This document shows positions 36,466-60,674 of a DNA stretch of 64,000 bases, piece after piece (the first letter of the stretch is position 1; each line of letters opens with the position of its first letter). Position numbers and translations under genes: made by a program. Under the pieces are notes generated by a model that saw nothing but the letters and a program-made list of their open reading frames with translations, searched no databases and was not told where the DNA came from. Source of the DNA: Candidatus Saccharimonadales bacterium (GTDB lineage: Bacteria; Patescibacteriota; Saccharimonadia; Saccharimonadales; JAGPDM01); assembly GCA_044227985.1 (NCBI GenBank), contig JBGAVT010000003.1, positions 20,250-84,249 of the forward strand, given 5' to 3'.

Positions 36466-36485
36466 TTAAATCAGCAAGCAATAGT

Positions 36486-43431: not shown

Positions 43432-43592
43432 ACTTGCTCCTGTTAACTTGCTACTCTTCAGTTTCGCAGACAATCTATACTCCGTCAATTATGGAGATGA
43501 GTGATGATAACACCTCTCTGTTACTAAGTTATCTGTAAAAATGAATAATTATGGTTGAATAGGTCGGTTGAATGCTAAAAAAACTAATACTT

Positions 43593-43847: not shown

Positions 43848-43963
43848 TAAATCAACTATACATTACCCAATACAACAATAAAAGATACCCGGATGGACAA
43901 CTTTTATTATTTAATACAGACTAATAGCAAATTAATATTCAGCCGTACTATCTGGCAGGATGA

Positions 43964-44218
43964 CTAGCCTTTGGCTTTGAGTAGTTTCTCGATTTTTGGT
44001 TTGTCAAAACCTACGATGATTTCACCATCGATATCGATAACTGGTACACCCATTTGCTGACTTTTTTCGATCATTTCTTTTTGTGCATCGAGGTCGACTG
44101 CTACGTCTTTTTGGGTAAAAGCAAAATTGTTTTTATCAAAGTAGTCTTTTGCCATGTGACAAAATCCACATGTTGGTGTGGTGTACATTGTTATTGTTGG
44201 TTGTGTTGCGTCGCTCAT
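43964..44218 (-). CDS. glutaredoxin-like / NrdH-type redoxin
   Basis: 84 aa thioredoxin fold with CGFC active site (TTPTCGFCHMAKDYF) and a GVPVI motif. Confidence 0.8.
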   Translation of the reverse strand: MSDATQPTITMYTTPTCGFCHMAKDYFDKNNFAFTQKDVAVDLDAQKEMIEKSQQMGVPVIDIDGEIIVGFDKPKIEKLLKAKG

Positions 44219-44219
44219 G

Positions 44220-44504
44220 TTAGCGCTCCTTCATTAATTTAATTACTTGTTGAACAGTTGTGTCTTCTTCGCGAATTCGGTAGCAAATCTTTTGCCCCAT
44301 TCGTTCCGGTTCAAGTATGCCGCTCTGCTCTAAAATCTTGAGCTGCTGGCTAGTACCCGCGGTAGAAATACCAAGCTCGGTGCTGAGCTCGCTTACGCAA
44401 ATGTCTTTTCGTGTACTCAAAAGCTCAACAATCCGATATCGGGTTTTGTCGCCAAGCGAGTTGAACATAGAAATTAGTTTGCGAGATAAATCCAAAGATT
44501 TCAC
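44220..44504 (-). CDS. ArsR/SmtB-family transcriptional regulator
   Basis: 94 aa winged HTH: LGDKTRYRIVELLS...ICVSELSTELGISTAGTSQQLKILEQSGIL. GTG start. One nt separates it from the redoxin gene. Confidence 0.82.
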   Translation of the reverse strand: MKSLDLSRKLISMFNSLGDKTRYRIVELLSTRKDICVSELSTELGISTAGTSQQLKILEQSGILEPERMGQKICYRIREEDTTVQQVIKLMKER

Positions 44505-44509
44505 TTTCT

Positions 44510-44579
44510 TTTGGTTAAAATTATGTTTAATTGTTTAACCAAACACTTAAATACTATTCCTTTCTAAGCTTATTGTCAA
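44510..44579 (-). promoter_or_regulatory. arsR-family operon promoter and candidate operator
   Basis: Minus strand: TTGACA (44579-44574), a 17-nt spacer, TAGTAT (44556-44551). A perfect 10-14-10 inverted repeat TTTGGTTAAA / TTTAACCAAA (44510-44519 / 44534-44543) follows, between the -10 and the GTG start. Confidence 0.6.
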
Positions 44580-44652
44580 TATGTTTTGTGTTTTTTACTC
44601 CAACTTGTCAACTTTTACATTTTGGTCTATAAATTATACTGGCAAGCAACGA

Positions 44653-45009: not shown

Positions 45010-45015
45010 AATTTT

Positions 45016-45249
45016 TTAGGTGGTGGCCTTAGCGATTAAGAGAATACCGACTACGATTAAAAGCATCCCTGACATTCCTACTAATGAAGTTTTCTCATGG
45101 ATAAAAATTATTCCGAATGCGGTCGATAAAACAATGCTTGCGCCGAAAACCATCGGAGAAATTACTGACACCTCTCCTCCCTTTTGAAATATTTTTGCAA
45201 ATGATATTGCGAAGATTGCTAGCGAAATACTAGAAAATACTGCGAACAC
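45016..45249 (-). CDS. small 3-TM membrane protein (SMR/EamA-half-like)
   Basis: 77 aa with three hydrophobic helices. GTG start preceded by a strong GGAGGAG SD. Confidence 0.5.
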   Translation of the reverse strand: MFAVFSSISLAIFAISFAKIFQKGGEVSVISPMVFGASIVLSTAFGIIFIHEKTSLVGMSGMLLIVVGILLIAKATT

Positions 45250-45448
45250 AACTCCTCCTCTACTATTAAGCAGAAGATTAGTTTGTAGGTATTTTTATTT
45301 CAATAAAATAGAGTTAAAAATCGAAACAGGAAAGAGATTAGCTGCAGCACTCACTACTAAGTTATCTGTTTGACACCTGCTAGTTTTTTGTTAATTTGAA
45401 ATGATGCATAGCTGATTGTCGCTAAAATTATGAGAGATAATAGCTTGA

Positions 45449-46057
45449 TTATGTTTCAACAAACTCGATGCACCGAGCATGATGTGCTGCATCGATTTTG
45501 CCGAGCTCAAGCATGACATCTACCATTTCGCGAATTGTTGCGAAATGATGCAAGTTAACTCCTGCTTCTTGTAGTGCTATTTCTCCACCCTTGTTGTAAT
45601 CGAGTAGAACGGCTGCATCAGATATTCTTAGGTCGAATGACTGCAGTGCGGAAACAACCTCAAGCAGTGAAGTACCTTTAGTGGTAAGGTCTTCAATCAC
45701 TAATATTTCTTCTTGCTCATACCATTCACCTTCAAGCGCTTTCTGTAATCCATAGGCTTTTACGGCAGCCTCTTTGCGTAGAAAAATCCATGGTCGTTCC
45801 ATCTCGAGGCTGATTGCTCCTGCGATTGGGAGCGCCGCGTAGGCCACGCCGGCCAGCCGATCGAAGTGGATGTCTTTAATCATTTCTGAATAGACTTTAG
45901 CTACTTGTTTCATTAAAGCAGGATGGCTTATGAGTAGACGTAGGTCGATATACATAGGGCTTTCGATACCGCTTTTTAATGTAAAATCACCAAATTTGAG
46001 AGCTCCAATTTGGTTTAAAGCGATTGCTAGTTCATTTTTAGATATATTGTTCATCAT
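45449..46057 (-). CDS. pyrE: orotate phosphoribosyltransferase
   Basis: ALKFGDFTLKSGIESPMYIDLR...ILVIEDLTTKGTS PRPP-binding motif. I chose the start at the MMNNISK Met pair (46057/46054) after a GAGGGGG SD. It overlaps the pyrF 3' end. Confidence 0.88.
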   Translation of the reverse strand: MMNNISKNELAIALNQIGALKFGDFTLKSGIESPMYIDLRLLISHPALMKQVAKVYSEMIKDIHFDRLAGVAYAALPIAGAISLEMERPWIFLRKEAAVKAYGLQKALEGEWYEQEEILVIEDLTTKGTSLLEVVSALQSFDLRISDAAVLLDYNKGGEIALQEAGVNLHHFATIREMVDVMLELGKIDAAHHARCIEFVET

Positions 46058-46847
46058 TTGCCCCCTCTGTAATTTTTTGTATTGTTTTCTCGATATCCTG
46101 ATGAAGTTCAAGTGCTGCTTGGCGGGGATCTTCAGCGAATATGATGCTTCTGCTGGCAGATATTTGAACACCACCGAGTTGGTCATTTAATCCAGCGCGA
46201 AGTGATTGTTCAAGGTCACCGCCCTGAACCCCGATACCAGGGATTAATAGCGAGGTCTTGTTGCCAGCAAGGTTGCGTATGACTTCTAGCTCCTCGGGAT
46301 ATGTAGCGCCTGCAACCAAGCCTATTGTTGCGTTGACATCGAGCCCGCAAAAACTCTGTACTACACGCTTGTACACTTCTTCTCCTTCGACCACCTGTAA
46401 CTGCATTTCATCGCTACCAGGATTACTCGTACGAGCCAAGATGTATAGCGTCCGATCATATTCATAAAAAGGCGCTAATGCCTCAATCCCCATGTACGGT
46501 TGTAGCGTGACGGCATCAGCAGCTAAATAGTCGAAAACAAACGATGCATAGCCACGATTTGTGTTGCCGATGTCACCGCGCTTGGCGTCTATGATGATAT
46601 ATGTATCTGGGGCAACTTTACGAATGTAGTCACAGGTTTTTTTGAGATTCTCAATACCTCGAGCTCCATCAGCCTCATAAAATGCAGTATTCGGCTTGTA
46701 GCTGCCGGCAATGTCTTTTGTTTGATCAATTATTCGTTTATTGAATTCAAATTGATTAAGTGTTCCAATTTTCTCAATATCTGGGTCTAACCCAATAACT
46801 AGTGCATTTGTAGCAAGTTGTTTCCAGTCAAAATTCTGGGCATTCAT
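46038..46847 (-). CDS. pyrF: orotidine 5'-phosphate decarboxylase (type 2)
   Basis: 269 aa: LVIGLDP...IIIDAKRGDIGNT...LLIPGIGVQGG. TGcTATAGT lies 9 nt upstream of the ATG. Confidence 0.88.
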   Translation of the reverse strand: MNAQNFDWKQLATNALVIGLDPDIEKIGTLNQFEFNKRIIDQTKDIAGSYKPNTAFYEADGARGIENLKKTCDYIRKVAPDTYIIIDAKRGDIGNTNRGYASFVFDYLAADAVTLQPYMGIEALAPFYEYDRTLYILARTSNPGSDEMQLQVVEGEEVYKRVVQSFCGLDVNATIGLVAGATYPEELEVIRNLAGNKTSLLIPGIGVQGGDLEQSLRAGLNDQLGGVQISASRSIIFAEDPRQAALELHQDIEKTIQKITEGANDEQYI

Positions 46848-46922
46848 ATCTGTCTAACTATAGCATAATTGCGGATAGACTCTTCGCTGTTATATCAAAA
46901 TGATATTTGCTAAACTGATTGT

Positions 46923-48005
46923 ATGCAGGGTTTCTACGATCCAGATAAGACTTTTGATGACAATTTTGATAATGGTCCGTTTTTTGATGAAATTCCCGCG
47001 TTAGTTCGTGACGGAAAACCAGTTTTTAATTTTCTTGGACATCCAATTTATTTACCGTTTGGTATTGGGGCAGGTCCGCTGCCAACGAGCAAACACGTTG
47101 CCGCAGCTTTTAAATTTGGTTATGATGTAGTCCATTATAAAACCCAGCGTAGTTATAGCTTTGAGGCAAATGAGTTTCCGAATGTCATACCAGTTGAATC
47201 ATCACACGCTATAAGCCTCGAAGAAGCCGAATCAGGCTTAACAAAAGCTAATTCATATCCCGAAAATCTTTCTGAGCTCGTGATCACTAATTCATTTGGT
47301 AATCCTAGTCGTGGTCCGGACTTCTGGCAGGAAGACATGAAGAAGGCTGTTGAATCGGCCGGTGAAGGTCAAGTAATGGTTGCTAGCGCCGTCGGCTCAA
47401 TTAAAGATGGTTTTTCTGAAGAAGATTATTGGGACGATTTTGCTGCTACTGCTCTACTTTGCAAAGAAGCTGGCGCACCAATTATTGAACTCAATCTATC
47501 GTGCCCAAATGTCGCCAGCGAAGGCGTGGTTTGTTATAACCAAACTGCAGTTATGGAGATTGTGACGCGGGCAAAAGAAGAAATTGGCAATACACCGCTT
47601 TTGATAAAGCTTGGATATTTTGAGCCCAAACAACAAGAACTTCTAGAAAACATTGTTATGGCTGTAGAGCCATTTGTAGCTGGAATTGCCAGTATAAATA
47701 CATTATCGGCAGCAGTGCGCAATAGCGACGGTACACAGGCGCTACCTGGCGAAGGACGATTGAAGTCAGGCCTTTGTGGCGCCGGGATTAAATGGGCGGG
47801 TCTTGATATGGTCCGCCGATTGAGTGAAATTCGTGCCGACACCAGTCTGGAGTTTTCTATCATCGGTGTGGGCGGTGTTATGCAACCGTCTGATTATTTT
47901 GCATATCGCGAGCTAGGCGCTGACGTTGTTCAGTCATGCACTGCGCCGATGTGGAACCCAAATTTAGCACATGAGATACTGAGTGAAATTAGAAGTAATG
48001 TCTAA
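46923..48005 (+). CDS. pyrD: dihydroorotate dehydrogenase (class 1-like)
   Basis: 360 aa: NSFGNPS...IELNLSCPNV...LLIKLG...IIGVGGV TIM-barrel flavoenzyme motifs. TGcTAAACT lies 6 nt upstream of the ATG. Confidence 0.78.
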   Translation: MQGFYDPDKTFDDNFDNGPFFDEIPALVRDGKPVFNFLGHPIYLPFGIGAGPLPTSKHVAAAFKFGYDVVHYKTQRSYSFEANEFPNVIPVESSHAISLEEAESGLTKANSYPENLSELVITNSFGNPSRGPDFWQEDMKKAVESAGEGQVMVASAVGSIKDGFSEEDYWDDFAATALLCKEAGAPIIELNLSCPNVASEGVVCYNQTAVMEIVTRAKEEIGNTPLLIKLGYFEPKQQELLENIVMAVEPFVAGIASINTLSAAVRNSDGTQALPGEGRLKSGLCGAGIKWAGLDMVRRLSEIRADTSLEFSIIGVGGVMQPSDYFAYRELGADVVQSCTAPMWNPNLAHEILSEIRSNV

Positions 48006-48582
48006 TCCGATCGACCAAACTGATGAATCAAGCTTTAAGCCCATGGTGATTTTTGGTTCTGCAGCATCATTATTCCGTAGTTTTTTAATCTGGATTTTTG
48101 GCTTACCTGCCTACATGTTATTAACGATTGGCGTTGCAGGCGCACTTTTGATTACGCTCTTTCCGCTCAGCCAGAATCTTCAACCCGATTCAAGCGTTAG
48201 TGTTTCTGCACCACCTCCATCACTTTTGCTATCACCACCAACTTTCTCTGGAACGATTATGATGTGGATTGGACTGCTGATGATGCTGGCAGCATTCTCG
48301 ATTTTTATTCGTGCAATTCGCCGTTTTTTCGAAGCGAAGGTTTCTTTGTTTGAGCAGCATAGGCTGATTTTTCTTAACGCATTGAGTATTATTTCCTGGG
48401 GAGTTATATGGTTTAATCCAGTGGTGCGCCAATATGTTCCGACCTCAGTATTAAACGAGCTATATTTACTCGTTTTATTTGTGATTTTTATTAGTCTTGG
48501 TCTAGAAAGAATCTTTGAGCGCCGTCGTGAACATGTTGAAGAAACCGTATTTGGTAGCGAAATAGACGAGCAAGAGAAATAA
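47983..48582 (+). CDS. hypothetical membrane protein
   Basis: 199 aa with about 4 TM helices. Overlaps the pyrD 3' end by 23 nt. Confidence 0.5.
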   Translation: MKLEVMSNPIDQTDESSFKPMVIFGSAASLFRSFLIWIFGLPAYMLLTIGVAGALLITLFPLSQNLQPDSSVSVSAPPPSLLLSPPTFSGTIMMWIGLLMMLAAFSIFIRAIRRFFEAKVSLFEQHRLIFLNALSIISWGVIWFNPVVRQYVPTSVLNELYLLVLFVIFISLGLERIFERRREHVEETVFGSEIDEQEK

Positions 48583-48594
48583 TTCTGGCTAGGA

Positions 48595-49653
48595 TTACAG
48601 AACTCTTTTAGCGTTAACTGCTTTCTCGTGATCGATAACACCATCTTGCATAACAGACTCGCTGTTTAGAAAAACATTCTGTACACGACCGAAAACCCTC
48701 TTACCTTCGAATGGCGACCACTTGGCTTTACTCTGCGAGTTCTTTGCACTGTAGAAGTACGATTCCTCATTTATTTCAATATAGTTTGTATCGTCAAGTT
48801 TTAAGTTAAATAATCTTATAGGACAATTATGGGTAAGATCAAGTAGTTTTTCACGACTCAAGCGGTTCTCTTGTTCGGCTTGCAAGAGCAATGGCAAGGT
48901 CGACTCGAGTCCAGGAATACCAAATGCACCAGCTTTTTTGTCGGTTAACGTGTGTGGTGCGTGGTCGCTTTCTATTAAGTCAATTGCATCTAAATTATCC
49001 CAAAGGAACTGTACATCTTTTTTGCTTTTTAATGACGGTTTCATCTGAGCAAATTCACCAATCCGTACTCCATCTTCTTCATCTAAGAAAAGATGGTGAG
49101 GTGTCACACCGCATGTAACGTTTCGACCTTTGTTTTTAGCACGAATAATTTTTGTTAAAATTTCTTGGCTTGGCATATGGGCTACATGAATGTGACGGTC
49201 GGATGACTCTAACGATTGAATCGCTAAATCGATTGTTGACTCTTCGGTATGTAGTACTATCGGTTTATCTTTTGGCCAACGTTCATAAATCTCAGCCAGT
49301 TTATTGAGGTCTAGCACGTAGCCACCGGTTGTAATATTTAGGTATAGCTTTAAGGCCACCGCTTTTTTACTTGCTTCTTCAAATGTGTCGAGATTATCGC
49401 CAAGCGAGCCGTAGTAAAAGCCTATATTACTAAGTGCTTTTTGCTCACCAAGATTGCGTTTCTCATCAAGCCGTTCAATTGTTGTAATCGGCTTTGAAGT
49501 GTTCGGCATATCGAGCACCGTTGTGAAGCCACCAGCTAAAGCGGCTGCCGTGCCACTAGCTAAGTCTTCTTTTTCGTTTTGGCCTGGTTCTCGTAAGTGA
49601 ACGTGCACATCGATGAGTCCGGGTAATGTAATCATACTTCTATTATTGCACAC
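48595..49653 (-). CDS. pyrC: dihydroorotase
   Basis: LPGLIDVHVHLREPG...GGFTTVLDMPNT...DHAPH metal-dependent amidohydrolase motifs. GTG 49653 after GGGAGA; an alternative ATG lies at 49635. Confidence 0.88.
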   Translation of the reverse strand: MCNNRSMITLPGLIDVHVHLREPGQNEKEDLASGTAAALAGGFTTVLDMPNTSKPITTIERLDEKRNLGEQKALSNIGFYYGSLGDNLDTFEEASKKAVALKLYLNITTGGYVLDLNKLAEIYERWPKDKPIVLHTEESTIDLAIQSLESSDRHIHVAHMPSQEILTKIIRAKNKGRNVTCGVTPHHLFLDEEDGVRIGEFAQMKPSLKSKKDVQFLWDNLDAIDLIESDHAPHTLTDKKAGAFGIPGLESTLPLLLQAEQENRLSREKLLDLTHNCPIRLFNLKLDDTNYIEINEESYFYSAKNSQSKAKWSPFEGKRVFGRVQNVFLNSESVMQDGVIDHEKAVNAKRVL

Positions 49654-49712
49654 CTTGATGTCTCCCTGAGAAGAATTTCTGTTATAATTTATGGAAACGA
49701 AAGTGAGGTTCT

Positions 49713-50633
49713 ATGGCATTAGCAAATCGATCATTAGTGGCGATTAACGATTTTGGTAAAGATGAGTGGCTCGAGGTTTTGGATGAGGCTACGGTTATAA
49801 AGCAATCTGGATTAACCTCTCGATCTGATGTATTAAAAGGCAGAATAGTAGCTACCCTCTTCTTTGAAGCTTCAACAAGAACCCGAATGAGTTTCCAAGC
49901 GGCAATCCAAAGACTTGGTGGTGATGTAATCGGTTTTTCGAGCGCATCAATGACAAGCGTTAAAAAAGGCGAAAGCCTAGAAGATACGATTCGTATGGTC
50001 AATGGTTACGCCGATGCCATCGTCATTCGTCATCCTGAAATTGGAGCTGCAAGCCGCGCTCTTGCCGTTTCAGATGTCCCTGTCATCAATGCTGGCGATG
50101 GCGCAAATGAACACCCGACACAGACATTGCTCGATCTTTTCTCAATACAGGAAACTCAAGGCAAACTCGATAATCTGCACATTGGATTTGGTGGCGACAA
50201 TCGATACAGCCGAACTACGCATTCTCTCGTTAAAGCTTTGGCAGCTTTTGATAATAATACGATGGAGTTTATCTCGCCAGATGAGTTGACGCTGCCGCGA
50301 GAACTTCGAGAATTTTTACAAAATAATAGTGTACAATTTTCCGAAACTGATCAGCTTGAAATGGTTCTCGATGATCTTGATACGCTTTATCTTCCTCGAA
50401 TTCAAAAAGAACGCTTTGAGGACCAAGCGGTCTTTGAAAAAGTAAAAAATGTATACCGTTTTGGTCAGGCGCATCTTGATATGACAAAAGAGAACTTCAG
50501 ATTGTTCTCCCCTCTACCTCGTATCGACGAAATCGACACGGCGATTGATGACGATCCCAAGTCGTACTATTTCAAGCAAGCTGCAAACGGTGTGCCAGTT
50601 CGCATGGCTTTACTTCAAAAAATCCTCGGCTGA
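49713..50633 (+). CDS. pyrB: aspartate carbamoyltransferase catalytic subunit
   Basis: 306 aa: FFEASTRTRMSF...HPTQTLLD...LSPLPR. TGtTATAAT (49680-49688) is followed by a 24-nt leader with GTGAGG. Confidence 0.92.
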   Translation: MALANRSLVAINDFGKDEWLEVLDEATVIKQSGLTSRSDVLKGRIVATLFFEASTRTRMSFQAAIQRLGGDVIGFSSASMTSVKKGESLEDTIRMVNGYADAIVIRHPEIGAASRALAVSDVPVINAGDGANEHPTQTLLDLFSIQETQGKLDNLHIGFGGDNRYSRTTHSLVKALAAFDNNTMEFISPDELTLPRELREFLQNNSVQFSETDQLEMVLDDLDTLYLPRIQKERFEDQAVFEKVKNVYRFGQAHLDMTKENFRLFSPLPRIDEIDTAIDDDPKSYYFKQAANGVPVRMALLQKILG

Positions 50634-50650
50634 TTCATCTGTATAAAATA

Positions 50651-50679
50651 TTGACAAAATAGTTATAAAACTATATTAT
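50651..50679 (+). promoter_or_regulatory. promoter of orphan gene 50702
   Basis: TTGACA (50651-50656), a 17-nt spacer, TATTAT (50674-50679). GGAG lies at 50692-50695 before the ATG. Confidence 0.55.
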
Positions 50680-50701
50680 ATTTTTATAATTTGGAGAAAA
50701 T

Positions 50702-52249
50702 ATGTCTGATACCGAACATGACGTTTTAGAAATGCTTGTTGAAGCAAGGAATTTAGAAAGACAAAATTTCAATTTTTATCAGGAAGAAATTGAACCAGCA
50801 ACATCAATAAGTTCTGACGCTATTGATTTAGATAGTAGAGGTATACCTGTCGCGGATCGATTAACTCCTACGAATATGGCAGATTTTTACCGAAGAGCTG
50901 GCTCTTTCATAGAAACGGCTAGCGCATTTACAGGCGATAGTGATACTTTTCCACTAAGATCTGCACGTATAGATGGTGAAAGATTAGTTTATTCACCAGC
51001 AAGAGATAAAGCTCACCAACTCGATGTGTACTCTGAACAGATGGCGAACGTTTTGGCTAGTGGAGAGCTATATGTCGGCCAGTCGCCCGGAGAAACAACT
51101 AATGAGGTATTCGGCAGAAATTTTGGCGGAGATGAAAAGCTCCCACCAGTTACTTTCGTCGATGTGCTGGATACGTTACGCGGAGTTTATCGAGAACAAG
51201 GTGGCCGTGGTACTAAAATGGGTTCATTACTGAGGACACAACTCGAGCATGTTAAGGATGATGAATACTACCGGGCAAATCAACCCGAGCTCTACTCAAT
51301 GTTTGCGGACGGAATAATGGAGATAATCGACGATGGCGAAGCCGAGCTTGACCCTGAACGCGGAATCCAAAAGAGAGGACAACGTATTGAAGAAAGCGAT
51401 AAATCTCCTAATGTTTTGAGAATGCTGGCATATGCCGACGCAGTTGCCCCTCTCTTTGAAAGTGGCGATGAAGAAACTAGTGATGCTGTCTTTCTCCAAA
51501 TATTAGATACGGTTAAGCGGCACACCAAAGCGATGGACGAAATCGATAGAGTGGACGTTATTGATCGTTTATTTATTGATTTTACAGGAGCCAACAAACA
51601 ACGTAGAAATTTACTCCAGCCTGGAGCTAGAAAAGCACAAGAAGCAATCATGGCCGCGTTTATAACAATGGATATGAGGGATGCTAGTAAAAAATTAGAC
51701 TTGGATTGTCGGCAATTAGACCAAAAATTAATGACGTATGACAAAGTGGACTACATGCAGCACGCCAGTTCTGTAACTCGTCAATGGAGGAACGTTGAAA
51801 GATTTGTCGAATTTGCAGGGGCAGATAAATGCGATGAATTATTTCATAGAACTGATGGATTTGATGATCTTGATGAATTAGATATGAGTAAACCTTTGGA
51901 TGTTGTATTTTATGACTATACCACATCATTTAGTAATACAATCTTTAATCCGAAAGTAGACGAACTTGGATGGGCGGTACCTCGCTCATCTGCAAGCATT
52001 ATTATGACTCTCGAGCCACGAATAAGCCACGAAGATATCGACAGCTTAAAGGGTCTCCATAAAAAGTTATATCTTGATCCTCTCAATAGGCATCTCTCGC
52101 CACCCGCTCCTTATCCCCAAACTGTTCCTGGTGCTAGAAGCGAATATGTTCAAAGAATGACTAAGATTTTGAGTCGATTTAGTGTTAATCCAAGTGATGG
52201 ATATGATAGTGAGCAAAATTTTACTGGTTTACCAAATATCAAAAATTAG
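50702..52249 (+). CDS. large acidic hypothetical protein (515 aa)
   Basis: Long uninterrupted ORF with its own consensus-like promoter and SD. I recognised no family. Confidence 0.65.
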   Translation: MSDTEHDVLEMLVEARNLERQNFNFYQEEIEPATSISSDAIDLDSRGIPVADRLTPTNMADFYRRAGSFIETASAFTGDSDTFPLRSARIDGERLVYSPARDKAHQLDVYSEQMANVLASGELYVGQSPGETTNEVFGRNFGGDEKLPPVTFVDVLDTLRGVYREQGGRGTKMGSLLRTQLEHVKDDEYYRANQPELYSMFADGIMEIIDDGEAELDPERGIQKRGQRIEESDKSPNVLRMLAYADAVAPLFESGDEETSDAVFLQILDTVKRHTKAMDEIDRVDVIDRLFIDFTGANKQRRNLLQPGARKAQEAIMAAFITMDMRDASKKLDLDCRQLDQKLMTYDKVDYMQHASSVTRQWRNVERFVEFAGADKCDELFHRTDGFDDLDELDMSKPLDVVFYDYTTSFSNTIFNPKVDELGWAVPRSSASIIMTLEPRISHEDIDSLKGLHKKLYLDPLNRHLSPPAPYPQTVPGARSEYVQRMTKILSRFSVNPSDGYDSEQNFTGLPNIKN

Positions 52250-52764
52250 AAATTTTCCAAAAATATTTCAGCTTGTTTGTGCGACTTTAATATCACGGAA
52301 TCCGTAGAAGTTTCATGTAGCGCTGTTGTGATTCTGCTTTTATGAATTGTGTGCCAACGATAGATATATTTTAGAAATGTCCAATTAAGGGTTTCTTGCC
52401 ACTGCGGATGCATACCTGGCCGCGATTTTTTATGGTATTTAAATCTTCTTTTTAAGACTCCCCAGTAACAAATAACCAATGGGATATCTAGAAAAATCAC
52501 CAAGTCAGCAGCTTCAAACCGTTCAAGGATTACCGAACCGTCGTTGCCGTCGATGATCCATTTTTTTGGCTTGTTTAGTGTTAATGAAAACTCTTTCCAA
52601 GCCTCACGATTATGTAAATAGTCCTTTTCAGGATCAAGAAAGAAATAATCCGAATGAATCAATGGAAGATTAGTCTTTTTTTGGAGCTCAAAAGCAAAGG
52701 TCGTCTTGCCTGCTCCGGGCGAGCCTACAACTGCTATGCGGTTTATTTGCTTAGTCCGTGCCAT
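52246..52764 (-). CDS. P-loop NTPase, adenylate-kinase-like (topology modulation protein FlaR-like)
   Basis: 172 aa with Walker [12 protein letters not shown]. Overlaps the carB 3' end by 22 nt, so it is the last gene of the carAB transcription unit. Confidence 0.65.
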
Positions 52765-55700
52765 GATTGGAGGGAGCGGACACTAAATTTTTCATCTGCA
52801 TTCTCTATAGCATCAACTATTGCTTCGGCAGCGAAAATGGTTGTCGCTATCGGGACGTTGTTTTTGCGTGTTGCGATTCTGATGTAATCTCCATCAGCTT
52901 TTGCACCTCGTCCCATTGGCGTATTGATAACGAGTTTAATTAAACCACTATTGATAAGATTGGCTGCGTTGGTTCCATCGTGCGTTTCGCCGTCAGCTGT
53001 AACTTTGGCAACTTCAATTGCGACTTGGACAAATTGTTCTTTGAGATATTTAGATGTACCACCCGTAGCAGCAATTGTGAATCCGAGCTCGATGAATTTT
53101 CGAGCAATTGGCAACAGTGCTTCTTTGTCGCGATTGGCAACCGACAAGAAAACGGTACCAGCATGAGGGATATCATCCCCGCCTGCAACCAGTGCTTTGG
53201 CAAAACTTGTCGCAAAATTATCCGAAACACCCATAACTTCTCCGGTGCTACGCATCTCTGGACCTAGAATTGAATCAGCATCTGCAAAGCGGCTGAATGG
53301 GAAAACCGGTTGTTTGACTGCTACGAGTTTTGAATCGTGCACATTCTGGATTCGATTATGATCATCAATTTTAAATTTATAGACTTTACTCAAGTCTTTT
53401 AACGATTCGCCGAGCATAATTCGAGTAGCAATCTTTATCAGTGGAACACCGATAGCTTTAGCAACAAATGGAACAGTACGACTGGCACGTGGGTTGGCTT
53501 CGATGACATAGACTTCCTCATTTTTTATAGCAAACTGAACGTTTAGTAAACCCACCACTTCAAGGTTCTTAGCGAGCTTTTCAGTTACCTCGATAAGCTT
53601 ACGCGTGACTTTCTCAGATAGGAATTCGGCTGGTATCGCGCAAGCGCTGTCGCCACTGTGGATGCCGGCTTCTTCGACGTGTTGCATGATACCACCGATG
53701 TGAGTCATGCCCGTTTTGTCCCGCAAGGCATCGACATCCACTTCCGTGGCTGACTCTAGAAAATGATCGATTAGTACTGGACGGTTTTTACTCAACCCGC
53801 CTTCTCGACCAAGACTCCCGTCGGCTTTAATTTCCTTTAAGGCATTTTTAAGATCAGCATCATTATAGGCAATCTGCATAGCTCTACCACCGAGAACGTA
53901 ACTTGGCCGAACCAAGACGGGGTAGCCAACTTCTTCAGCGATCTTCAACGAATCTGTAGTATTGGTGGCTGTTCCACCTGCAGGCTGAGCAATTTTAAGT
54001 TTTTTACATAGCTTATTCCACTCGTCACGATCCTCGGCTAAGTCGATACTTTTGGGTGATGTTCCTAGAACTAGTTTTGGATCGATTTGATCAGCCAGCT
54101 TTAGTGGGGTTTGTCCGCCGAGGCTAACGATAACACCGTCAGGATTTTCAAGTTCGATGATATTCTGGGCATCTTCAAAAGTTAGTGGTTCGAAATAGAG
54201 TCGGTCACTGGTGTCATAGTCGGTGCTGACAGTTTCTGGGTTGCAATTAATCATTATTGATTCGTAGCCGGCCTCTTGCAGTGCAAAACTAGCATGGACA
54301 CAAGCATAGTCGAATTCAATTCCTTGCCCGATTCGATTCGGTCCACTACCTAGAATAATAACCTTCTTATTCTTTGACGGTTGGGCCTCATTCTCATCTT
54401 CCCAGGTTGAGTAAAAGTACGGTGTTTCAGCTGCGAACTCAGCGGCACAGGTGTCGACCGTCTTGTAGGTTGGTAATACATCTAGCTTTTGTCGGTATTC
54501 TTTAACCTTACTCATTGGTTCGCCAAGAATGTATCCGAGCTGAGCATCAGCAAAACCGAGTTGCTTCAGCTGTTTCATTTCTTGTTTTTTTACGTCTTCT
54601 AGATTTTTGCCTTTGAGGCTTTTTCTAGCTTCGGAAACTCGCGCCATCTGTACGAGAAACCATAGATCATAGCCGCAGCTTTTACTAATTTCGTCCAAAT
54701 CAACTCCACGACGAATCAATTCTTCTACTGCATATATCCGGTCAGGATTAGCGGTTGCCACATCCGCTAGTAGCTTATTAGTTTCAATTTTTTTGAACTC
54801 AGCCTCACCTTCATCAGAATTAAGCCCAAGCCGTCCCTGCTCAAGGCTTCGCAGAGCTTTCTGCAAGCTTTCAGGAAAAGTACGGCCTATTGCCATGACC
54901 TCACCAACCGATTGCATTTGCGTGCCAAGAATAGCTGGGATGTCTGGAAATTTCTCAAAGGTCCATCGTGGGACCTTGGTCACAACATAGTCTATGGCCG
55001 GTTCGAAACTGGCCGGTGTTTGTTTAGTTATATCGTTCTGAATTTCATCAAGTCGGTACCCTACTGCGAGAAGCGCAGCTATTTTAGCGATTGGAAAACC
55101 AGTAGCTTTACTAGCAAGTGCTGAACTGCGTGAAACACGCGGGTTCATCTCGATAACAACTTGCTCGCCATTTTCTGGATTAACTGCGAATTGGACATTG
55201 CTGCCACCAGTTTCGACGCCAACGCGGCGCAATACGGCAAATGATGCATCACGCATTTCTTGATATTCACGGTCACTTAACGTCTGTGCGGGAGCTACGG
55301 TAATTGAATCACCGGTGTGTACGCCCATTGCATCTACGTTCTCTATGGCGCAAATGATAACGCAGTTATCAGCATTATCGCGCATAACTTCCATTTCAAA
55401 TTCTTTCCAACCTTTTAGCGATTGTTCAACAAGAATCTCGCCGATTGGACTGGCTTTAATGCCAAATTCAACGAGTTTTTCAAATTCTTCTTCGGTGTTT
55501 GCGATTCCAGTACCCTTTCCACCAAGGATATAAGCTGGACGGATAATCATTGGCAGGCCGATTTTTTCTTTGATTGCCTGAGCTTCTAACGGGGTATGAG
55601 CAGTGCCAGATCGGGCTGACTTCAGGCCGATCTCGTCCATCGCTTCTTTGAATACTTGACGATTTTCGGCGGTATTGATCGATTCGGCAGTTGCGCCAAT

Positions 55701-56045
55701 CATTTCGACATTGTGTTTCTTCAGGATGCCCAACTGCTCGATTTCCATAGCTAGGTTGAGGGCAGTTTGTCCGCCGAGAGTTGGTAGAAGTGCATCAGGT
55801 TTCTCTAATTCTATGATGCTCTCCAAGACCGAAGCTGTCAGTGGTTCTATATACGTTGCGTCAGCAAAATCAGGGTCTGTCATAATCGTAGCCGGGTTAG
55901 AATTCGCCAAAATAATTCTATAGCCTTCTTCGCGTAAAATCTTACAAGCCTGTGTACCTGAATAGTCGAACTCACAGGCTTGACCGATCACGATTGGGCC
56001 ACTTCCAATTATCAAGATACTTTTAATGTCAGTTCGTTTAGGCAT
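52743..56045 (-). CDS. carB: carbamoyl-phosphate synthase large subunit
   Basis: 1100 aa with duplicated ATP-grasp modules and an MGS-like C-terminal domain. Long blocks are identical to the CarB consensus ([40 protein letters not shown]). Confidence 0.96.
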
Positions 56046-56181
56046 GATTATTCTCCATCATTTTCTTAAAATCAGTAAACAGATAATGCGCATCGTGCGG
56101 TCCCGGTCCAGCTTCGGGATGGTGCTGCACACTCATGGCGTTATATTTTTTACTTTTGATTCCCTCAACGACTTGGTCGTG
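56038..56181 (-). other. carA: carA 3' segment (47 codons), same frame, directly after the internal TAA
   Basis: Translates as [47 protein letters not shown], the conserved CarA C-terminus. Its stop overlaps the carB ATG (56045) by 8 nt. Confidence 0.85.
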
Positions 56182-57114
56182 TTATTTTAGATGATTAACA
56201 TCGACAACTTTAAGGCTTTTTTCATCAACTGCGAAGTTATGGTTTTGACTAGTTATTTCAACGATATTTGTTTGGTAGTTCATGACTGGATGATTGGCGC
56301 CGTGATGGCCAAACTCTAGTTTGTAAGTTTTAGCACCGAGAGCGCTACAAAGTAGTTGTTGCCCGAGGCAAATTCCAAAAATTTGAACTTTCCCGAGAAG
56401 CTTTTTAATCGTCTCGATTTGAAGTGCGAGAATGCTCGGATCTCCTGGGCCATTACTTAAAAAGATGCCGTCTGGTTTTAGTGCCAATATGTCGTCAGCT
56501 GTTGTCGATGCTGGCACGACGGTAACCTTTGCGAGGCTCGCCAGTTGTTCGACGATTGAAGTTTTCATACCGTAGTCGATAGCAACTATACGTAAGTCTC
56601 CTTTCCCGATTTTGTTGATTGATTCGTTAGTTACGAATTCAACAAAGTTAAATTCGCTTGTTGCTGGCTCCTCTTTGGCTGCCGCGAGGAGTTGATTGTA
56701 GCTGGCGCGTCCAAATGCAGCATTTTGTGAGCCATGGCTTCGTATATGTTTAGTAAGCGCGCGCGTGTCGATTCCACTCAAAACAGACAAATCGTTCGTT
56801 GTCAGATATCGATCAAGAGACGCTGTGCTTTTAAAGTTGCTTGGAACCAAAGAAAGGTCTCTGACAATAACGCCACGAGCATAGACCTCGTTTGATTCAT
56901 TATCGAGCTTATTCGTTCCGTAGTTACCTATATGTGGATAGGTAAAAGTTATAATTTGGCCAGCGTAGCTCGGATCACTGATAATTTCTTGGTAACCGCT
57001 CATAGAAGTATTGAATACGATCTCACCGCTACTTATGCGCTGCTCTGCTCCGTATAGCGTTCCTTCAAAGCTTCGCCCATCTGCCAACACTAATTGATCT
57101 ATTATCTCGTCCAT
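56182..57114 (-). CDS. carA: carbamoyl-phosphate synthase small subunit, first 310 codons up to an in-frame TAA
   Basis: LVLADGRSFEG...TFTYPHIGNYG...IFGICLGQQLL (nucleophile Cys). The ORF ends VDVNHLK-TAA at 56184-56182. Confidence 0.9.
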   Translation of the reverse strand: MDEIIDQLVLADGRSFEGTLYGAEQRISSGEIVFNTSMSGYQEIISDPSYAGQIITFTYPHIGNYGTNKLDNESNEVYARGVIVRDLSLVPSNFKSTASLDRYLTTNDLSVLSGIDTRALTKHIRSHGSQNAAFGRASYNQLLAAAKEEPATSEFNFVEFVTNESINKIGKGDLRIVAIDYGMKTSIVEQLASLAKVTVVPASTTADDILALKPDGIFLSNGPGDPSILALQIETIKKLLGKVQIFGICLGQQLLCSALGAKTYKLEFGHHGANHPVMNYQTNIVEITSQNHNFAVDEKSLKVVDVNHLK

Positions 57115-57138
57115 CGATTGCCTTTCTTATTTTCAGGC

Positions 57139-57169
57139 AAAAAAATAACACTTCCGCGAGTGAAGTGTT
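57139..57169 (-). terminator. intrinsic-terminator-like hairpin plus U-run inside the carA 5' leader (candidate attenuator)
   Basis: Minus strand: AACACTTC-actcgcg-GAAGTGTT followed by ATTTTTTTG, 24 nt before the carA ATG and downstream of the carA promoter. Confidence 0.6.
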
Positions 57170-57206
57170 TTTGAACCGTCCAATGTATTGTTACCATTGA
57201 GATTTT

Positions 57207-57235
57207 ATTATATTCCGAAAGCTCTATATACGCAA
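57207..57235 (-). promoter_or_regulatory. carA promoter
   Basis: Minus strand: TTGCGT (57235-57230), a 17-nt spacer, TATAAT (57212-57207). Confidence 0.6.
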
Positions 57236-57331
57236 ACGCTATTTTGTGGGAATAAAAGTTTAATCACTAATGCTTACTATGCAATAATACTTTATTGACT
57301 TAGTTATTATATTTATGTATAAATAATACAA

Positions 57332-58975
57332 ATGAGCGCAACTGTTGTAGATCAGCTAGACACAGAATTGACCGATAGGTTGGTGGAGTCTATCAAAAGC
57401 TCGAAAGCTGAAATACTAGACTCAGTCAACTCCCTCTTCGAATCAGATGGGTGTGAAGCTGTTGTTAGAATGCTCAATCCTGGCCTTGCCCTAGATCCTT
57501 TGGATATGGGTGAAGAACTTCCTGGAAGCCTTGTTGTGTTAGACCCAATAGATGACCTTGGAATAGAAGCAACTTTTGCTATTTTCAAGGCATCTGCTCA
57601 AACCACAGAGGAACAGACAAAAAAACCAAAGCGACGAATTTTCAATATAAAATCAAATGATTATGGTCCTGAAGGTAGTCGTAATGATTCTTTTACAGAG
57701 ATTGAAGAGAGCTCCACTTTTGGTGTTTTGATCAGGGGAAATGTATTCTTGCCATTGGTTATTTTCAGCGACGGCCAAACTCTCCCAGAAATTGAGATAA
57801 TAAAATTAGGTACTGACTCAGTCGATCTCGAAGCGGTAGGCGGATCTAGGTCAGTTGAATTACAGCGCGATAAGGTTCTCTTAAGTAAAATTGCAACAGT
57901 AGTTTCTCCAGACAGAAAATCTTTCGATGACAGAGCGGCTATGCTTGCAAATAATGCTGAGCTACGTAGATATGAACCAAATCCACTTTTACTTTCAAAA
58001 GGAAGAAACAATATAGATAGGATGCTCGAGCGAGCGACGTTTGATTTTGGAAACAACGAATTGGTTACAAGATGCCTAGACTTGCTGGAAGCTGAAGAAC
58101 AACTCATTATAGAGGAATCATCTGGTGATTATTGGGAGAGATATCAGGAGATGCTTGAACCACTTGCTTTAATGGCTTTGATATACGAATTTACAGATAC
58201 TGAGCCAACGCCACAACAAGCAGAAATCAACCAAAGAATTATCTCAGCTTATGAAACAATGTTAACAATCGATTTTTATAAAGAACAAATACGGTTTGCA
58301 GACAAGCAACTTAAAAATGATGAGCTTTTAAGAAAAGCAGATAAAAGATTGCGAGATCCGACAAAAGCACTTTTTGACAGATTAGAAGGTATACTACATA
58401 TAAAACAACGCACTCGATCTACACCCAAGATAACTACCGAAGATGTGGTTAAATTTCATGCAGAAAGAATAACTGCCGCAAACGATGAGCCAATAACTTT
58501 AACTGATATATTAAATGTTCTTGATGGAGATAAAAAGCCCGAAGACAGAGTGACGCCTAAAATCGTAAGAGATGCCTTTGTTAGTGAAGACTTCATAAGT
58601 AGTGAAGCTTTGGAGAGGCATGAGAGGATTATGTCTCTCTCAGCTTCGCTTGGGAGATTAGCTGGCGTAGATGGTAGGCCATTGGTTGTAGGAAAGTGGG
58701 AAGGTCATTTACCAGAAGATAACCCACAAGGGACACTTAATTTTCAGTTGTCTCTAAGGCAGTCTGCGGCTGGTTTTCTGGCTGTTTATCATAGTGGATA
58801 CAGTTCAAAAACTGATCCTAAACTAAGTGGTGATCCAGAAAGAGCACTTGAAGTTACACCACGAGGTGTTCGTGCTGGAGAGGTTATGATAAGTTGGTTG
58901 ACTGGAGATCAAGAACGAGAGCCAGGAATTCTGAGACTACTGGAAGAATTTTCGAAGCGTAGTGCTAAAAAATAA
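57332..58975 (+). CDS. large hypothetical protein (547 aa)
   Basis: Long uninterrupted ORF. TGTATAAAT ends 7 nt before the ATG. I recognised no family. Confidence 0.65.
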   Translation: MSATVVDQLDTELTDRLVESIKSSKAEILDSVNSLFESDGCEAVVRMLNPGLALDPLDMGEELPGSLVVLDPIDDLGIEATFAIFKASAQTTEEQTKKPKRRIFNIKSNDYGPEGSRNDSFTEIEESSTFGVLIRGNVFLPLVIFSDGQTLPEIEIIKLGTDSVDLEAVGGSRSVELQRDKVLLSKIATVVSPDRKSFDDRAAMLANNAELRRYEPNPLLLSKGRNNIDRMLERATFDFGNNELVTRCLDLLEAEEQLIIEESSGDYWERYQEMLEPLALMALIYEFTDTEPTPQQAEINQRIISAYETMLTIDFYKEQIRFADKQLKNDELLRKADKRLRDPTKALFDRLEGILHIKQRTRSTPKITTEDVVKFHAERITAANDEPITLTDILNVLDGDKKPEDRVTPKIVRDAFVSEDFISSEALERHERIMSLSASLGRLAGVDGRPLVVGKWEGHLPEDNPQGTLNFQLSLRQSAAGFLAVYHSGYSSKTDPKLSGDPERALEVTPRGVRAGEVMISWLTGDQEREPGILRLLEEFSKRSAKK

Positions 58976-59015
58976 TCTAGTATTAATTAAGCTAGTTTAA
59001 TTAATACAGAAATAT

Positions 59016-59555
59016 TTACTCGAGAATCCAATCTTGTTTAAATGGAGCTAAAGCAATGACTAATGCATCTCTATTGCTCGTGGTTCGAGTAATGTGATTA
59101 TTAGTTGACATGCCTGCGTAACCGTCTAACTTTCCTATATCTTTCTTATTGAGTTTTTCTTCAAGTACTGCGCTTAAATCAAAATCTGCCGTCACATGTT
59201 TGGCGAGATATTCTGGTACAAAATAGCGTGGTGTGCCTGCAGTCCCTTTTTCTCCATTTCTATCACGAACCACCACCCAGTCACTGACAAACCACATATC
59301 ATTAACAAAATACATGCCACCTTCCATGCCAATAGCAAAATCTGCGTCAGAATTGTCGAATACAAATTGAGCACGGTTGTTGGCGCCAAGAATAGATTCA
59401 GCTTCACTCATTGGTTGTTCGTTGACCCCGGACGGTGCGGCGATACCTGAAAAAACGAACTTATGATTAGGGAAAGCAATCGCAAATGCCTGTTGTGCTG
59501 CATCAATCTTAGTCGGATTCTCCGAGCCGACAGCAACTTTTTCTAATATATTCAT
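59016..59555 (-). CDS. inosine/xanthosine triphosphatase (YjjX/DUF84 family non-canonical NTPase)
   Basis: 179 aa: VAVGSENPTKIDAAQQAF...GVNEQPMSEAE...GMEGG. AGGAGA SD upstream. Confidence 0.75.
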   Translation of the reverse strand: MNILEKVAVGSENPTKIDAAQQAFAIAFPNHKFVFSGIAAPSGVNEQPMSEAESILGANNRAQFVFDNSDADFAIGMEGGMYFVNDMWFVSDWVVVRDRNGEKGTAGTPRYFVPEYLAKHVTADFDLSAVLEEKLNKKDIGKLDGYAGMSTNNHITRTTSNRDALVIALAPFKQDWILE

Positions 59556-59792
59556 TTTCTCTCCTGAAGTTAGTTGTTAAATTGTAGCAATTATCAACTT
59601 TGATCGAAAGTCTCCCAAAAATCAGAATATAAGCTATGAAAAAACTAAAAAATGTATTGCATGAATATGGCTCAACTGATAGAATATCTGCTGTTAGATG
59701 AACAAAATTACATGCAAACATGTTGGGGGTGGCGTATTGCTTCCTGTCGGTAGCCTATTTGTTGATGCATCTACAAAAAATCGAGAGTCGCT

Positions 59793-60674
59793 ATGAGTGC
59801 GGCTCTTTTTAATGTAGCTCGATTCTTCGCGAGTGAAGAAGGTCCCCACATCAGCTTAAAAGCTGAGCAGATTGGTAAATTTGGCCCGATTACTTATACC
59901 AATAGTATGCTTTACACGCTAGTTGTTGCTGCATTCATCTTGGTACTTGCCTGGTTTATTGGTCGTAAGGTTACTTTCAAGCCACAAAAAGGTATTGTTC
60001 AGCTTCTAGAAATCCCTGTTGAATTTGTTATAGACATGCTCGAAGGCATCTTCGGTAACCGCAAGCAGGCTGTTAAATTCGCGCCAATTTTCTCTGTTTA
60101 TTTCATCTTCATCATGGTCAGCAATCTTTCTGGGCTTATGCCGTTTGTCGGGCATGGCATCGTAGCAGGAGAGTTTCCTGCTTTTCGTCCTTTTACAGCC
60201 GATTTGAATGGTGTTATTGCAATGGCTATTTTTTCTATAGTCGCAGTACAAGTTCTATCAATTCGTGAGCAAGGTCTTAAGGGGCATATGCAGCATTTCT
60301 TCAGCGACAAACCGAAAAATCCAATTAATTTTTTTGTTGGAATTCTTGAGGTTCTTGGTGAGTTTACACGAATTATTAGTCTTAGCCTTCGACTATTTCT
60401 TAATACAGTTATCGGTGAGATTCTTATCTCTGTTTTCATTTTCATCAGCGGGAATGCTACGCCATTAACTTTAATTGTACTGTTTCTGTTTGAGGGATTA
60501 GTTGCATATATTCAGGCGTATATTTTTACCGTTTTGTCGGCTACCTATCTCGGCCTAGCTGTTGCCCATCATCACGATGAGGAGCACGAAAAGAGCATTA
60601 TCGGCTCTGAGACCGACCCATCACATTTTGTTCACCCAAGCACCGAACTACATGCTAGTAAGGCGCAGAAGTGA
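59793..60674 (+). CDS. atpB: F0F1 ATP synthase subunit a
   Basis: 293 aa polytopic: ...ISLSLRLFLNTVIGEIL (essential Arg helix)...AYIQAYIFTVLSATYL. Carries an unusual ~45-aa His/Glu-rich C-terminal tail. Confidence 0.9.
   Translation: MSAALFNVARFFASEEGPHISLKAEQIGKFGPITYTNSMLYTLVVAAFILVLAWFIGRKVTFKPQKGIVQLLEIPVEFVIDMLEGIFGNRKQAVKFAPIFSVYFIFIMVSNLSGLMPFVGHGIVAGEFPAFRPFTADLNGVIAMAIFSIVAVQVLSIREQGLKGHMQHFFSDKPKNPINFFVGILEVLGEFTRIISLSLRLFLNTVIGEILISVFIFISGNATPLTLIVLFLFEGLVAYIQAYIFTVLSATYLGLAVAHHHDEEHEKSIIGSETDPSHFVHPSTELHASKAQK

Follow-up and report, generated by a model that had tools for sequence, protein, structure and literature searches.

What controls the carAB genes of a Candidatus Saccharibacteria (TM7) genome? 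A stretch of 64,000 nucleotides (nt) from such a genome, here called the window, carries carA, for the glutamine amidotransferase subunit of carbamoyl-phosphate synthetase, and carB behind a short leader in which an open reading frame (ORF) of 31 codons runs straight through a hairpin and the run of U residues that follows it. From the comparison of this leader with its homologues, we propose that this leader regulates carAB as a ribosome-coupled attenuator of transcription and has been conserved in this role, and we put the probability of this reading at roughly 0.6. Its parts deserve separate grades. That the leader is a conserved cis-regulatory element, made up of a translated short ORF and an RNA hairpin, is very probable. 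That it would work by ribosome-dependent antitermination is probable to a clearly lesser degree, whilst a role in sensing uridine or cytidine triphosphate (UTP or CTP) is suggested by analogy and is put forward tentatively.

The features are listed in Table 1; all leader coordinates are positions of the window, read on the minus strand. An earlier note on this DNA had described the two promoter boxes, an ATG at 57197, the 31-codon ORF, the hairpin, a tail A-U7-G and an overlap of 10 nt with carA, and each of them lies where it was placed. The promoter had been called a consensus promoter, which is correct for the -10 box, TATAAT. In the -35 box, only 3 of 6 positions agree with TTGACA, and a promoter scan therefore omitted the promoter; the same promoter/terminator scan lists the leader hairpin as terminator-like. 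As RNA, the hairpin reads AACACUUC-(ACUCGCG)-GAAGUGUU and lies within codons 10-17 of the leader ORF. Counted from the AUG, its 5' arm occupies nt +29 to +36, and the transcript would be expected to be released near +59. Since the leader ATG lies only 9 nt past the -10 box, no 5' untranslated region able to hold a Shine-Dalgarno sequence (SD) is available. The spacer AAAATCTCA consists of a pyrimidine tract, TCTC, followed by an A and then by the A of the ATG. The carA ATG at 57114 stands behind an SD, AAGAAAGG (57128-57121), part of which is predicted to be sequestered in the weak second hairpin, and the final sense codon of the leader ORF ends 10 nt within carA. The carA leader and the gene for a 547-amino-acid protein on the plus strand (starting at 57332) are divergent. 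Thus, as had been argued earlier, the hairpin cannot end the transcript of any upstream gene and can only act on the carA leader.

Table 1. Positions in the window of the carA leader, its divergent neighbour and the pyrimidine genes.
Feature	Position	Strand	Remarks
-35 box TTGCGT	57235-57230	-	Leader/carAB promoter
-10 box TATAAT	57212-57207	-	17-nt spacer from the -35 box
9-nt spacer AAAATCTCA	57206-57198	-	Holds the presumed transcription start(s)
Leaderless 31-codon leader ORF MVTIHWTVQKHFTRGSVIFLPENKKGNRWTR	57197-57102	-	ATG at 57197, TAA at 57104-57102
Putative terminator hairpin AACACTTC / loop ACTCGCG / GAAGTGTT	57169-57147	-	8-bp stem
Putative terminator tail A-U7, then G	57146-57139 (T7 57145-57139)	-	In-frame reading ..GUU AUU UUU UUG
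Weak second hairpin UUGCCU / AGGCAA	57140-57118	-	Predicted in minimum-free-energy and centroid folds
Possible 5'-terminal hairpin UCAAUG / CAUUGG	Arms 57200-57195 and 57185-57180	-	Would enclose the leader AUG; tentative
Divergent promoter TTGACT-17-TATAAA, 8 nt, ATG (57332)	57295-57334	+	Leaderless gene for the 547-amino-acid protein, back-to-back with the leader promoter
carA	56039-57114	-	TIGR01368, 2.6e-110; first gene under the leader
carB	52743-56045	-	NF003671, 1587 bits; start overlaps the carA end
pyrB, aspartate carbamoyltransferase	49713-50633		pyr cluster
pyrC	48595-49653		pyr cluster
pyrD	46923-48005		pyr cluster
pyrF	46038-46847		pyr cluster
pyrE	45449-46186		pyr cluster

Taken alone, the features in the window are suggestive rather than compelling and do not go beyond chance, because the hairpin is weak and an open frame of 31 codons is expected by chance in 8-23% of cases. 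Two things raise the finding above this level. Under strict criteria, the leader hairpin is the only intergenic hairpin followed by a T-run in the whole 64 kb, and the architecture of the leader is conserved, with covariation, in distant relatives.

The absence of an SD before the leader ORF is not exceptional in this genome. When the 60 nt upstream of every long ORF in the window were listed, at least 20 operon-first genes, including pyrF, pyrD and the divergent 547-amino-acid gene, showed a -10 box (TATAAT, TATACT or TAAAAT, in many cases with a TGn extension), then 6-9 nt and the ATG, without an SD; examples start at 4907, 6164, 6918, 9135, 14166, 25722, 28743, 41063, 46847, 46923 and 57332. 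Genes that are internal to operons or have longer leaders show GGAG-type sites. A perfect TATAAT followed after 6-9 nt by an ATG is found at nine sites in the 64 kb, i.e., at six long genes, a 90-codon intergenic ORF, an intragenic position and the leader ORF, and seven of the eight sites other than the leader start real-looking genes. The proposal that the leader ORF is leaderless thus fits the genome. As most operon-first genes share this geometry, translation of the leader ORF is credible, and the 5'-terminal AUG at 57197 is likely translated. No description of predominantly leaderless operon-first genes in Saccharibacteria was found in the literature searched. The same -10/ATG signature precedes two ORFs of 77-84 codons (starts at 41366 and 43847, minus strand), which may be unannotated small genes.

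Homologous leaders represent seven lineages, i.e., that of the window, that of a second, sister species (L016, L018-L020) and those of the loci L093, L026, L032/L038, L035 and L097. CarA of the sister species is 91% identical to that of the window; in L093, L026, L032, L038, L035 and L097, the identity is 57-60%. The leader is identical in ten contigs of the same species, which are hence uninformative. The sister species has kept the promoter, the ORF, the stem and the U7, and all three substitutions in its hairpin are located in the loop. A further C-to-T change in this species preserves a pair of the second hairpin, i.e., the helix over the SD, as G.U. In a metagenome-assembled genome of the sister species (L001/L017; GCA_964622235.1, CAZUNB010000007.1), a run of 48 N is located at 2770-2817, exactly at the U-tract. 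Three other contigs of the same species read through the position with T7, so that the run reflects a gap in the scaffold rather than an insertion.

Sequence identity between the window and L016 is mosaic over positions 53000-60100. The body of carA is 76-90% identical (mostly about 78%), and parts of the 547-amino-acid gene are 99% identical. With 95-100% identity to L016, the intergenic regions 57115-57331 and 59556-59792 exceed the surrounding coding DNA in conservation. The divergent 547-amino-acid protein is present only in the two sister species.

The leaders of L093, L026, L032, L038, L035 and L097 share the architecture of the window leader in largely different sequence. All leaders have the order TTGnnn-17-TA(T/C)AAT, exactly 9 nt, ATG, and an ORF of 25-31 codons that passes through a hairpin and a U-run, and the -10 box is invariant as TA(T/C)AAT in the eight aligned leaders. 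The locus L093 (G+C content 42%) is syntenic with the window (atp operon, NTPase, carAB) and has the promoter TTGCGC-17-TACAAT, a 31-codon ORF and the hairpin GAACUCUC-(AUAU)-GAGAGUUC with U7. In L026 (45% G+C), TTGCAA-17-TATAAT is followed by 25 codons and GACUCCC-(AUUC)-GGGAGUC with U7. L032 and L038 (54-57% G+C), which have a divergent argC, combine TTGCCT-17-TACAAT with 26 codons and AGCUCCC-(AGUC)-GGGAGUU with a U-run. The leader of L035 (50% G+C) has TTGCTC-17-TACAAT, 30 codons and GGCUCCC-(GUCG)-GGGAGUU with a U-run, and that of L097 (45% G+C), with arg genes nearby, has TTGTAC-17-TATAAT, 26 codons and CUCCC-(UUUA)-GGGAG with a U-run. In these relatives, the stop codon of the leader ORF overlaps the start codon of carA, as ATGA in L093, L026 and L035, as TTGA and GTGA in L032 and L038, and as GTGA in L097. 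The ORF of the window clade reaches 10 nt into carA because an ancestral xxA-TGA became xxA-TGG.

The reading frame is conserved as well. The distances from the leader ATG to carA are 83, 92, 74, 77, 77, 89 and 77 nt, all of which equal 2 modulo 3, and the ORF is open in seven of seven lineages; the chance of this is 0.06-0.29 per lineage, with a product of about 5e-5. The 3' arm and the tail are always read as GGR-AGU-NUU-NUU-UUU, and the U-run is present in all lineages. In the stem, 87% of the cells pair among six distinct lineages, and four of nine pairs show compensatory changes on both sides (U-A to C-G; C-G to U-A; C-G/A-U/G-C; A-U to G-C). None of 500 shuffles reached this level, and partners slid by 1-3 columns gave at most one such pair. 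The alignment was registered by hand on the invariant ACU/AGU core, with the window loop trimmed to NNNN, since an alignment by covariance model forced the 7-nt loop of the window into 4 nt and thereby mis-registered the stem. An alignment fitted to a structure favors that structure, and the control with slid partners is the relevant safeguard. Thus, the conservation of frame, hairpin and U-run in relatives, on which the earlier note had made its proposal depend, was borne out in seven lineages, with compensatory changes in the stem. The element is also specific. In the window together with 500 kb of fetched loci, a covariance model of the leader matches these eight sequences and no others, and a strict terminator scan upstream of carA in about 40 loci of other phyla found no such site, apart from one unrelated match 131 nt upstream of carA in L040 (71% G+C).

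The leader peptides differ widely, and no codon run is common to them. They contain 0-3 arginine codons, which are not conserved and are even exchanged between the sister species (R14C and R28Q); an arginine-sensing leader peptide was rejected for this reason.

In the mechanism that we propose, RNA polymerase would start at the sigma-70-type promoter TTGCGT-17-TATAAT and produce a transcript with its 5' end at the AUG of the leader ORF or within about 3 nt of it. A 70S ribosome would load on the nascent 5' end without an SD, like on most operon-first genes here. If no ribosome is close behind the polymerase at the U-tract, the hairpin would form and an RNA of about 60 nt would be released. If, however, no more than about 30-40 nt separate the first ribosome from the polymerase, a distance derived from the known sizes of both machines, the ribosome would cover the 5' arm, and the polymerase would continue into carAB. 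To block the stem, the P site of the ribosome would have to be at about codon 6 or beyond. The same ribosome would melt the weak hairpin over the ribosome-binding site of carA, and the overlap of the stop codon with the carA start would couple translation of carA to that of the leader; the weak helix over the SD together with this overlap argues for such translational coupling. Folding of the leader gives only the terminator and the downstream SD hairpin in both minimum-free-energy and centroid structures, and no alternative antiterminator helix. Consistently, a ribosome near the polymerase is reported to suppress a terminator located inside or just after an ORF (PMC4824070). As to the signal, low UTP or CTP might slow the polymerase or shift its start, allowing the ribosome to catch up, so that the first enzyme of the pathway to uridine monophosphate (UMP) would rise. 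Pyrimidine nucleotides are the most plausible input because of the gene context and the precedents of pyrBI, pyrE and Pseudomonas carAB.

Several observations weigh against this reading. Calculation of the folding energy, which the earlier note had recommended, gave a divided answer: the hairpin does fold, at about -8 to -10 kcal/mol, but with three G-C pairs and z = -1.2 relative to shuffles its stability is modest. Between the AUG and the hairpin, no run of three or more U is found in the window, and at most one UUU in the other lineages. Thus, the suggested pyrBI-like layout stands as far as the terminator inside an ORF and the pyrimidine context are concerned but does not extend to the U-rich pause clusters of pyrL. 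Only about 59 nt separate the AUG from the point of release, which calls for very rapid initiation by the ribosome on the nascent 5' end. Canonical terminators consisting of a G+C-rich hairpin and a T-run are found at no gene end in the 64 kb. Furthermore, the leader precedes a carAB that adjoins arginine genes in L032, L038 and L097, and many close relatives have no leader and express carA as a leaderless gene. Being present in arginine contexts and lost in many relatives, the leader is neither bound to a pyrimidine cluster nor indispensable.

The distribution of the leader points to its history. Beyond the sister species, the nearest relatives of CarA reach an identity of only 57-60%. Among them, L021-L024, L028 and L029 have carAB beside argJ/argC without any leader, and carA itself is leaderless, 9 nt past TACAAT; the more distant leader-bearing loci belong to the same clade of CarA. 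The loci L030 and L031 have the promoter cTTGCC...TACAAT in common with L032 and L038; the leader ORF and terminator are present in the latter two only, and in the former, the ATG of carA is located exactly where the leader ATG sits in L032 and L038. The state of L030 and L031 is consistent with a clean deletion of the leader. In a tree of CarA, the leader-bearing lineages are basal, and the L032/L038 pair is nested among lineages with a leaderless carA that share its promoter. This topology suggests an ancestral element with repeated, precise losses.

In a refinement of the attenuator model, which would not exclude it, the attenuator would receive its signal from a switch between start sites. 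Initiation at the pyrimidines (U, C) located 7-8 nt past the -10 box would give transcripts with 2-3 additional bases, which would close the 5' hairpin UCAAUG/CAUUGG. The AUG would then be hidden, the ORF would remain untranslated, and the terminator would act, leaving carAB off. Starts at the A residues 9-10 nt past the -10 box would yield truly leaderless transcripts that are translated at once, resulting in read-through. Which start is used in the Y-Y-A-A(UG) tract would depend on the pools of UTP/CTP relative to that of ATP. Such a two-stage nucleotide sensor, of a kind not known to have been described, would be a hybrid of pyrC-type start switching and pyrBI-type attenuation and would rely on leaderless initiation being strictly bound to the 5' end. 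We consider both the switching and the sensor built on it rather unlikely. A pyrimidine tract followed by AAUG is present at the same place in all leaders, as TCTCAATG, CTTAATG or TTTTAATG, and the 9-nt spacing is fixed in the leaders, whereas it is 6-9 nt in the other leaderless genes of the window; conservation at the 5' end could, however, mostly reflect shared ancestry. RNAalifold predicted the 5' hairpin on the eight leaders with one compensatory change, C-G to U-A in L035, and this single change is the only one. The hairpin is predicted in five to six of the seven lineages, but it is short and A/U-rich, absent in L026, and formed with a different partner in L097. In the window, its energy is -4.1 kcal/mol if the start is the 7th nt past the -10 box and about 0 if it is the A of the AUG. 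Likewise, in six of seven lineages, the predicted stability of -2.3 to -7.9 kcal/mol declines to about 0 to -3.5 kcal/mol once the start is moved to the A residues, although any stem is trivially weakened by the removal of bases. Switching of this kind has a precedent in pyrC and pyrD of E. coli and Salmonella (PMC6524683).

Perhaps the leader is not a metabolite sensor at all. The ORF might deliver ribosomes to carA by leaderless entry, termination and reinitiation at the stop/start overlap, with the internal terminator as a fail-safe that aborts untranslated transcripts, so that carAB would be tied to translational capacity or growth rate. This possibility, too, seems improbable, though several points are in its favor: the stop/start overlap is kept in every lineage, the leader peptides have neither an amino-acid-sensing codon run nor a conserved residue, a U-rich pause cluster is absent, unlike in pyrL, the leader is found in both pyrimidine and arginine contexts, and terminators within ORFs are known to act on untranslated RNA (PMC4824070). 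However, delivery is not needed because carA has its own SD in most lineages (GGAG, AGGAG or GAAAGG), and relatives do well with a directly leaderless carA. Moreover, a hairpin that is maintained by compensatory changes and followed by a U-run, in front of a gene of a feedback-controlled pathway, resembles specific attenuators.

In Gram-positive bacteria, the leaders of pyr genes and of carAB are commonly under PyrR-type control. A trans-acting factor, such as a PyrR-like protein or a small RNA, could bind the leader and decide on termination, the ORF being incidental, and a short block, GGCAUUGAAA, is indeed conserved in several leaders. Such control is very unlikely here. The earlier note had seen no PyrR-type binding loop, and a search of positions 56900-57500 against Rfam at E <= 10 agrees, yielding no match to a PyrR site and nothing relevant; across the whole window, no family matched at the gathering threshold. 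No PyrR gene was detectable in the 64-kb window, and the sole phosphoribosyltransferase of the pyr cluster is PyrE. Recognition of a specific sequence is disfavored by the lack of conservation in the loop and stem sequences, and an alternative antiterminator helix is not apparent. The conserved ORF frame and the stop/start overlap would also be left unexplained.

Least probable of all is that the promoter, ORF and terminator form a separate unit, i.e., a gene for a small RNA of about 60 nt or for a small protein, with carA transcribed from its own promoter made of the 3' arm and the T-run, TGtTATTTT (57150-57142), or that a repressor binds the inverted repeat as its DNA operator. TGnTAnnnT does resemble the extended -10 boxes common in this genome, and a small RNA from the carA 5' untranslated region has been reported in Pseudomonas syringae (PMC4997734), but any stem with a T-run after an A mimics TAnnnT, the stop codon overlapping the carA start and the frame fixed in all lineages tie the ORF to carA, and the terminated transcript would lack a stop codon, so that the ORF cannot be an ordinary small-protein gene. 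An operator was rejected since the sequences of the arms are not conserved but change in a compensatory manner, the palindrome has no second copy in the window even with 3 mismatches allowed, the other pyr promoters included, and no repeats are common to the pyr promoters.

The genomic context of the attenuator candidate is that of pyrimidine synthesis. The window contains a complete de novo UMP pathway clustered within 12 kb (Table 1), and the other pyr promoters are located in intergenic regions of just 59-75 nt, without a comparable leader. To our knowledge, members of the Saccharibacteria are generally described as lacking nucleotide biosynthesis. The complete pathway at 45449-57114 is an observation in its own right; the closest relatives of CarA are found in arginine-gene contexts instead.

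The carA copy in the window contains an in-frame TAA at 56184-56182 (minus strand), and the NCBI product is accordingly truncated at 310 amino acids, whereas an intact CarA of 358 amino acids is encoded in 18 metagenome contigs of the same species. Relative to a same-species contig, the window shows 11 differences over 7,077 nt, all of them in carA (56181-56384) and nine within 32 nt (56181-56212). They are nearly all transversions and result in P244Q, H252Q (GICLGHQ to GICLGQQ), D303V, E305D, T307N, R309L, N310K, L311stop and N312H. The pattern suggests a local error of assembly or consensus, or strain-specific decay. Recoding was rejected as an explanation.

Elsewhere in the window, fewer than 40 nt often separate convergent genes, with gene 3' ends, for example, at 58976-59015, 20069-20096 and 36466-36485. 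The hairpin in the gap 58976-59015, GTATTAATTAA-(GCTAGT)-TTAATTAATAC, is perfect and A/T-only and has no T-run. Gaps of 1.09 kb (43489-44580) and 0.44 kb (45010-45448) are free of genes, and no tRNA or tmRNA is found anywhere in the 64 kb. The 286-nt intergenic region at 11566-11851, located between convergent genes, contains a long imperfect inverted repeat and folds far better than shuffles (z = -2.66 on the plus strand and -4.56 on the minus strand). It has no match in Rfam and may be an unrecognized structured RNA.

Ribosome-mediated attenuation requires the first ribosome to be immediately behind RNA polymerase. If the proposed attenuator is real, the carA leader would therefore be evidence of transcription-translation coupling in the Candidate Phyla Radiation (CPR), i.e., in organisms that cannot be studied in pure culture, and it would show that a leader peptide can be started on a leaderless mRNA with just about 59 nt left to the release point. 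The two-stage start-switching sensor, if true, would even be direct evidence for tight coupling in the CPR. With about 100 nt and seven natural variants, the element would be a portable object to test leaderless initiation, coupling and termination in vitro. It would also identify carAB as a point of regulation in the Saccharibacteria in which de novo pyrimidine synthesis is retained, and, since the leader ORF is unannotated in all records seen, its recognition would improve annotation. Thus far, this type of attenuation has been elucidated almost only in proteobacteria, with few cases in Firmicutes and Actinobacteria (PMC2965389).

Among known systems, the carA leader is most like E. coli pyrL of the pyrBI operon and rph-pyrE. 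In all of them, an intrinsic terminator, putative in the carA leader, is embedded in a short ORF that separates the promoter from the first gene of the pyrimidine pathway. As in pyrL, the U-run is read as Phe-rich codons and the ORF ends at the start of the structural gene. In the pyrL sequence, the hairpin AGCCCCUC-(AAUC)-GAGGGGCU is followed by U8 in frame, and the stop codon lies 3 nt before the pyrB ATG. The differences are substantial. Whereas pyrL is led by an SD (GGGAGG), comprises 44 codons and has about 89 nt from AUG to hairpin, the carA leader is leaderless, with 25-31 codons and 28-39 nt. The U-rich, UTP-sensitive pause clusters CAUUUUGUCUU and CCGUUUUUCUUCCCGUU upstream of the pyrL hairpin have no counterpart in the carA leader. 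The two share no sequence homology, regulate different genes, pyrB and carA, and belong to different phyla, the carA leader being from the CPR/Saccharibacteria. Thus, of the hallmarks of the pyrBI/pyrE type, the carA leader has the conserved terminator and the presumably translated ORF that runs through it to the gene start, and it lacks the upstream U-rich pause sites and the SD-dependent initiation. Amino-acid-sensing attenuators (trp/his, mycobacterial Cys) are characterized by a conserved codon run and a competing antiterminator helix, and PyrR-dependent ones by a PyrR-binding anti-antiterminator stem-loop; none of these is found in the carA leader.

The same operon is regulated in Pseudomonas aeruginosa, where carAB is reported to be controlled by a leader peptide and attenuation (Kwon et al. 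1994, cited in PMC4997734). That system belongs to a proteobacterium with SD-led translation, and in P. syringae, the carAB leader ORF is absent (PMC4997734). Very likely, the leaders of Pseudomonas and Saccharibacteria arose independently. Leaderless polycysteine short ORFs of mycobacteria (bioRxiv 10.1101/834739) are likewise unannotated, come first on a leaderless mRNA and control downstream genes. However, they sense cysteine via consecutive Cys codons, and their effect is on translation, in that a ribosome-binding site becomes unmasked, whereas the carA leader has no conserved sensor codons and the structure that it would control is an intrinsic transcription terminator. As in pyrC and pyrD (PMC6524683), starts a few nt apart could decide on a translation-blocking 5' hairpin, which in the carA leader is a prediction; in pyrC and pyrD, the hairpin hides an SD and the output is purely translational, whereas in the carA leader it would hide the 5'-terminal AUG and act via the terminator. 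The carA motif RNA, a riboswitch candidate of Polynucleobacter (PMC8632094), is also a conserved structure directly upstream of carA with a proposed cis-regulatory role, but it is an extended imperfect hairpin beside the ribosome-binding site in beta-proteobacteria, without an ORF or a terminator. Judged from its sequence, the carA leader of Saccharibacteria is thus a putative leaderless leader-peptide attenuator, analogous to those of pyrBI, pyrE and Pseudomonas carAB but outside these families and without a family in Rfam. What appears to be new in it is that it is leaderless, that it does without an upstream U-rich pause cluster, and that it is found in the CPR.

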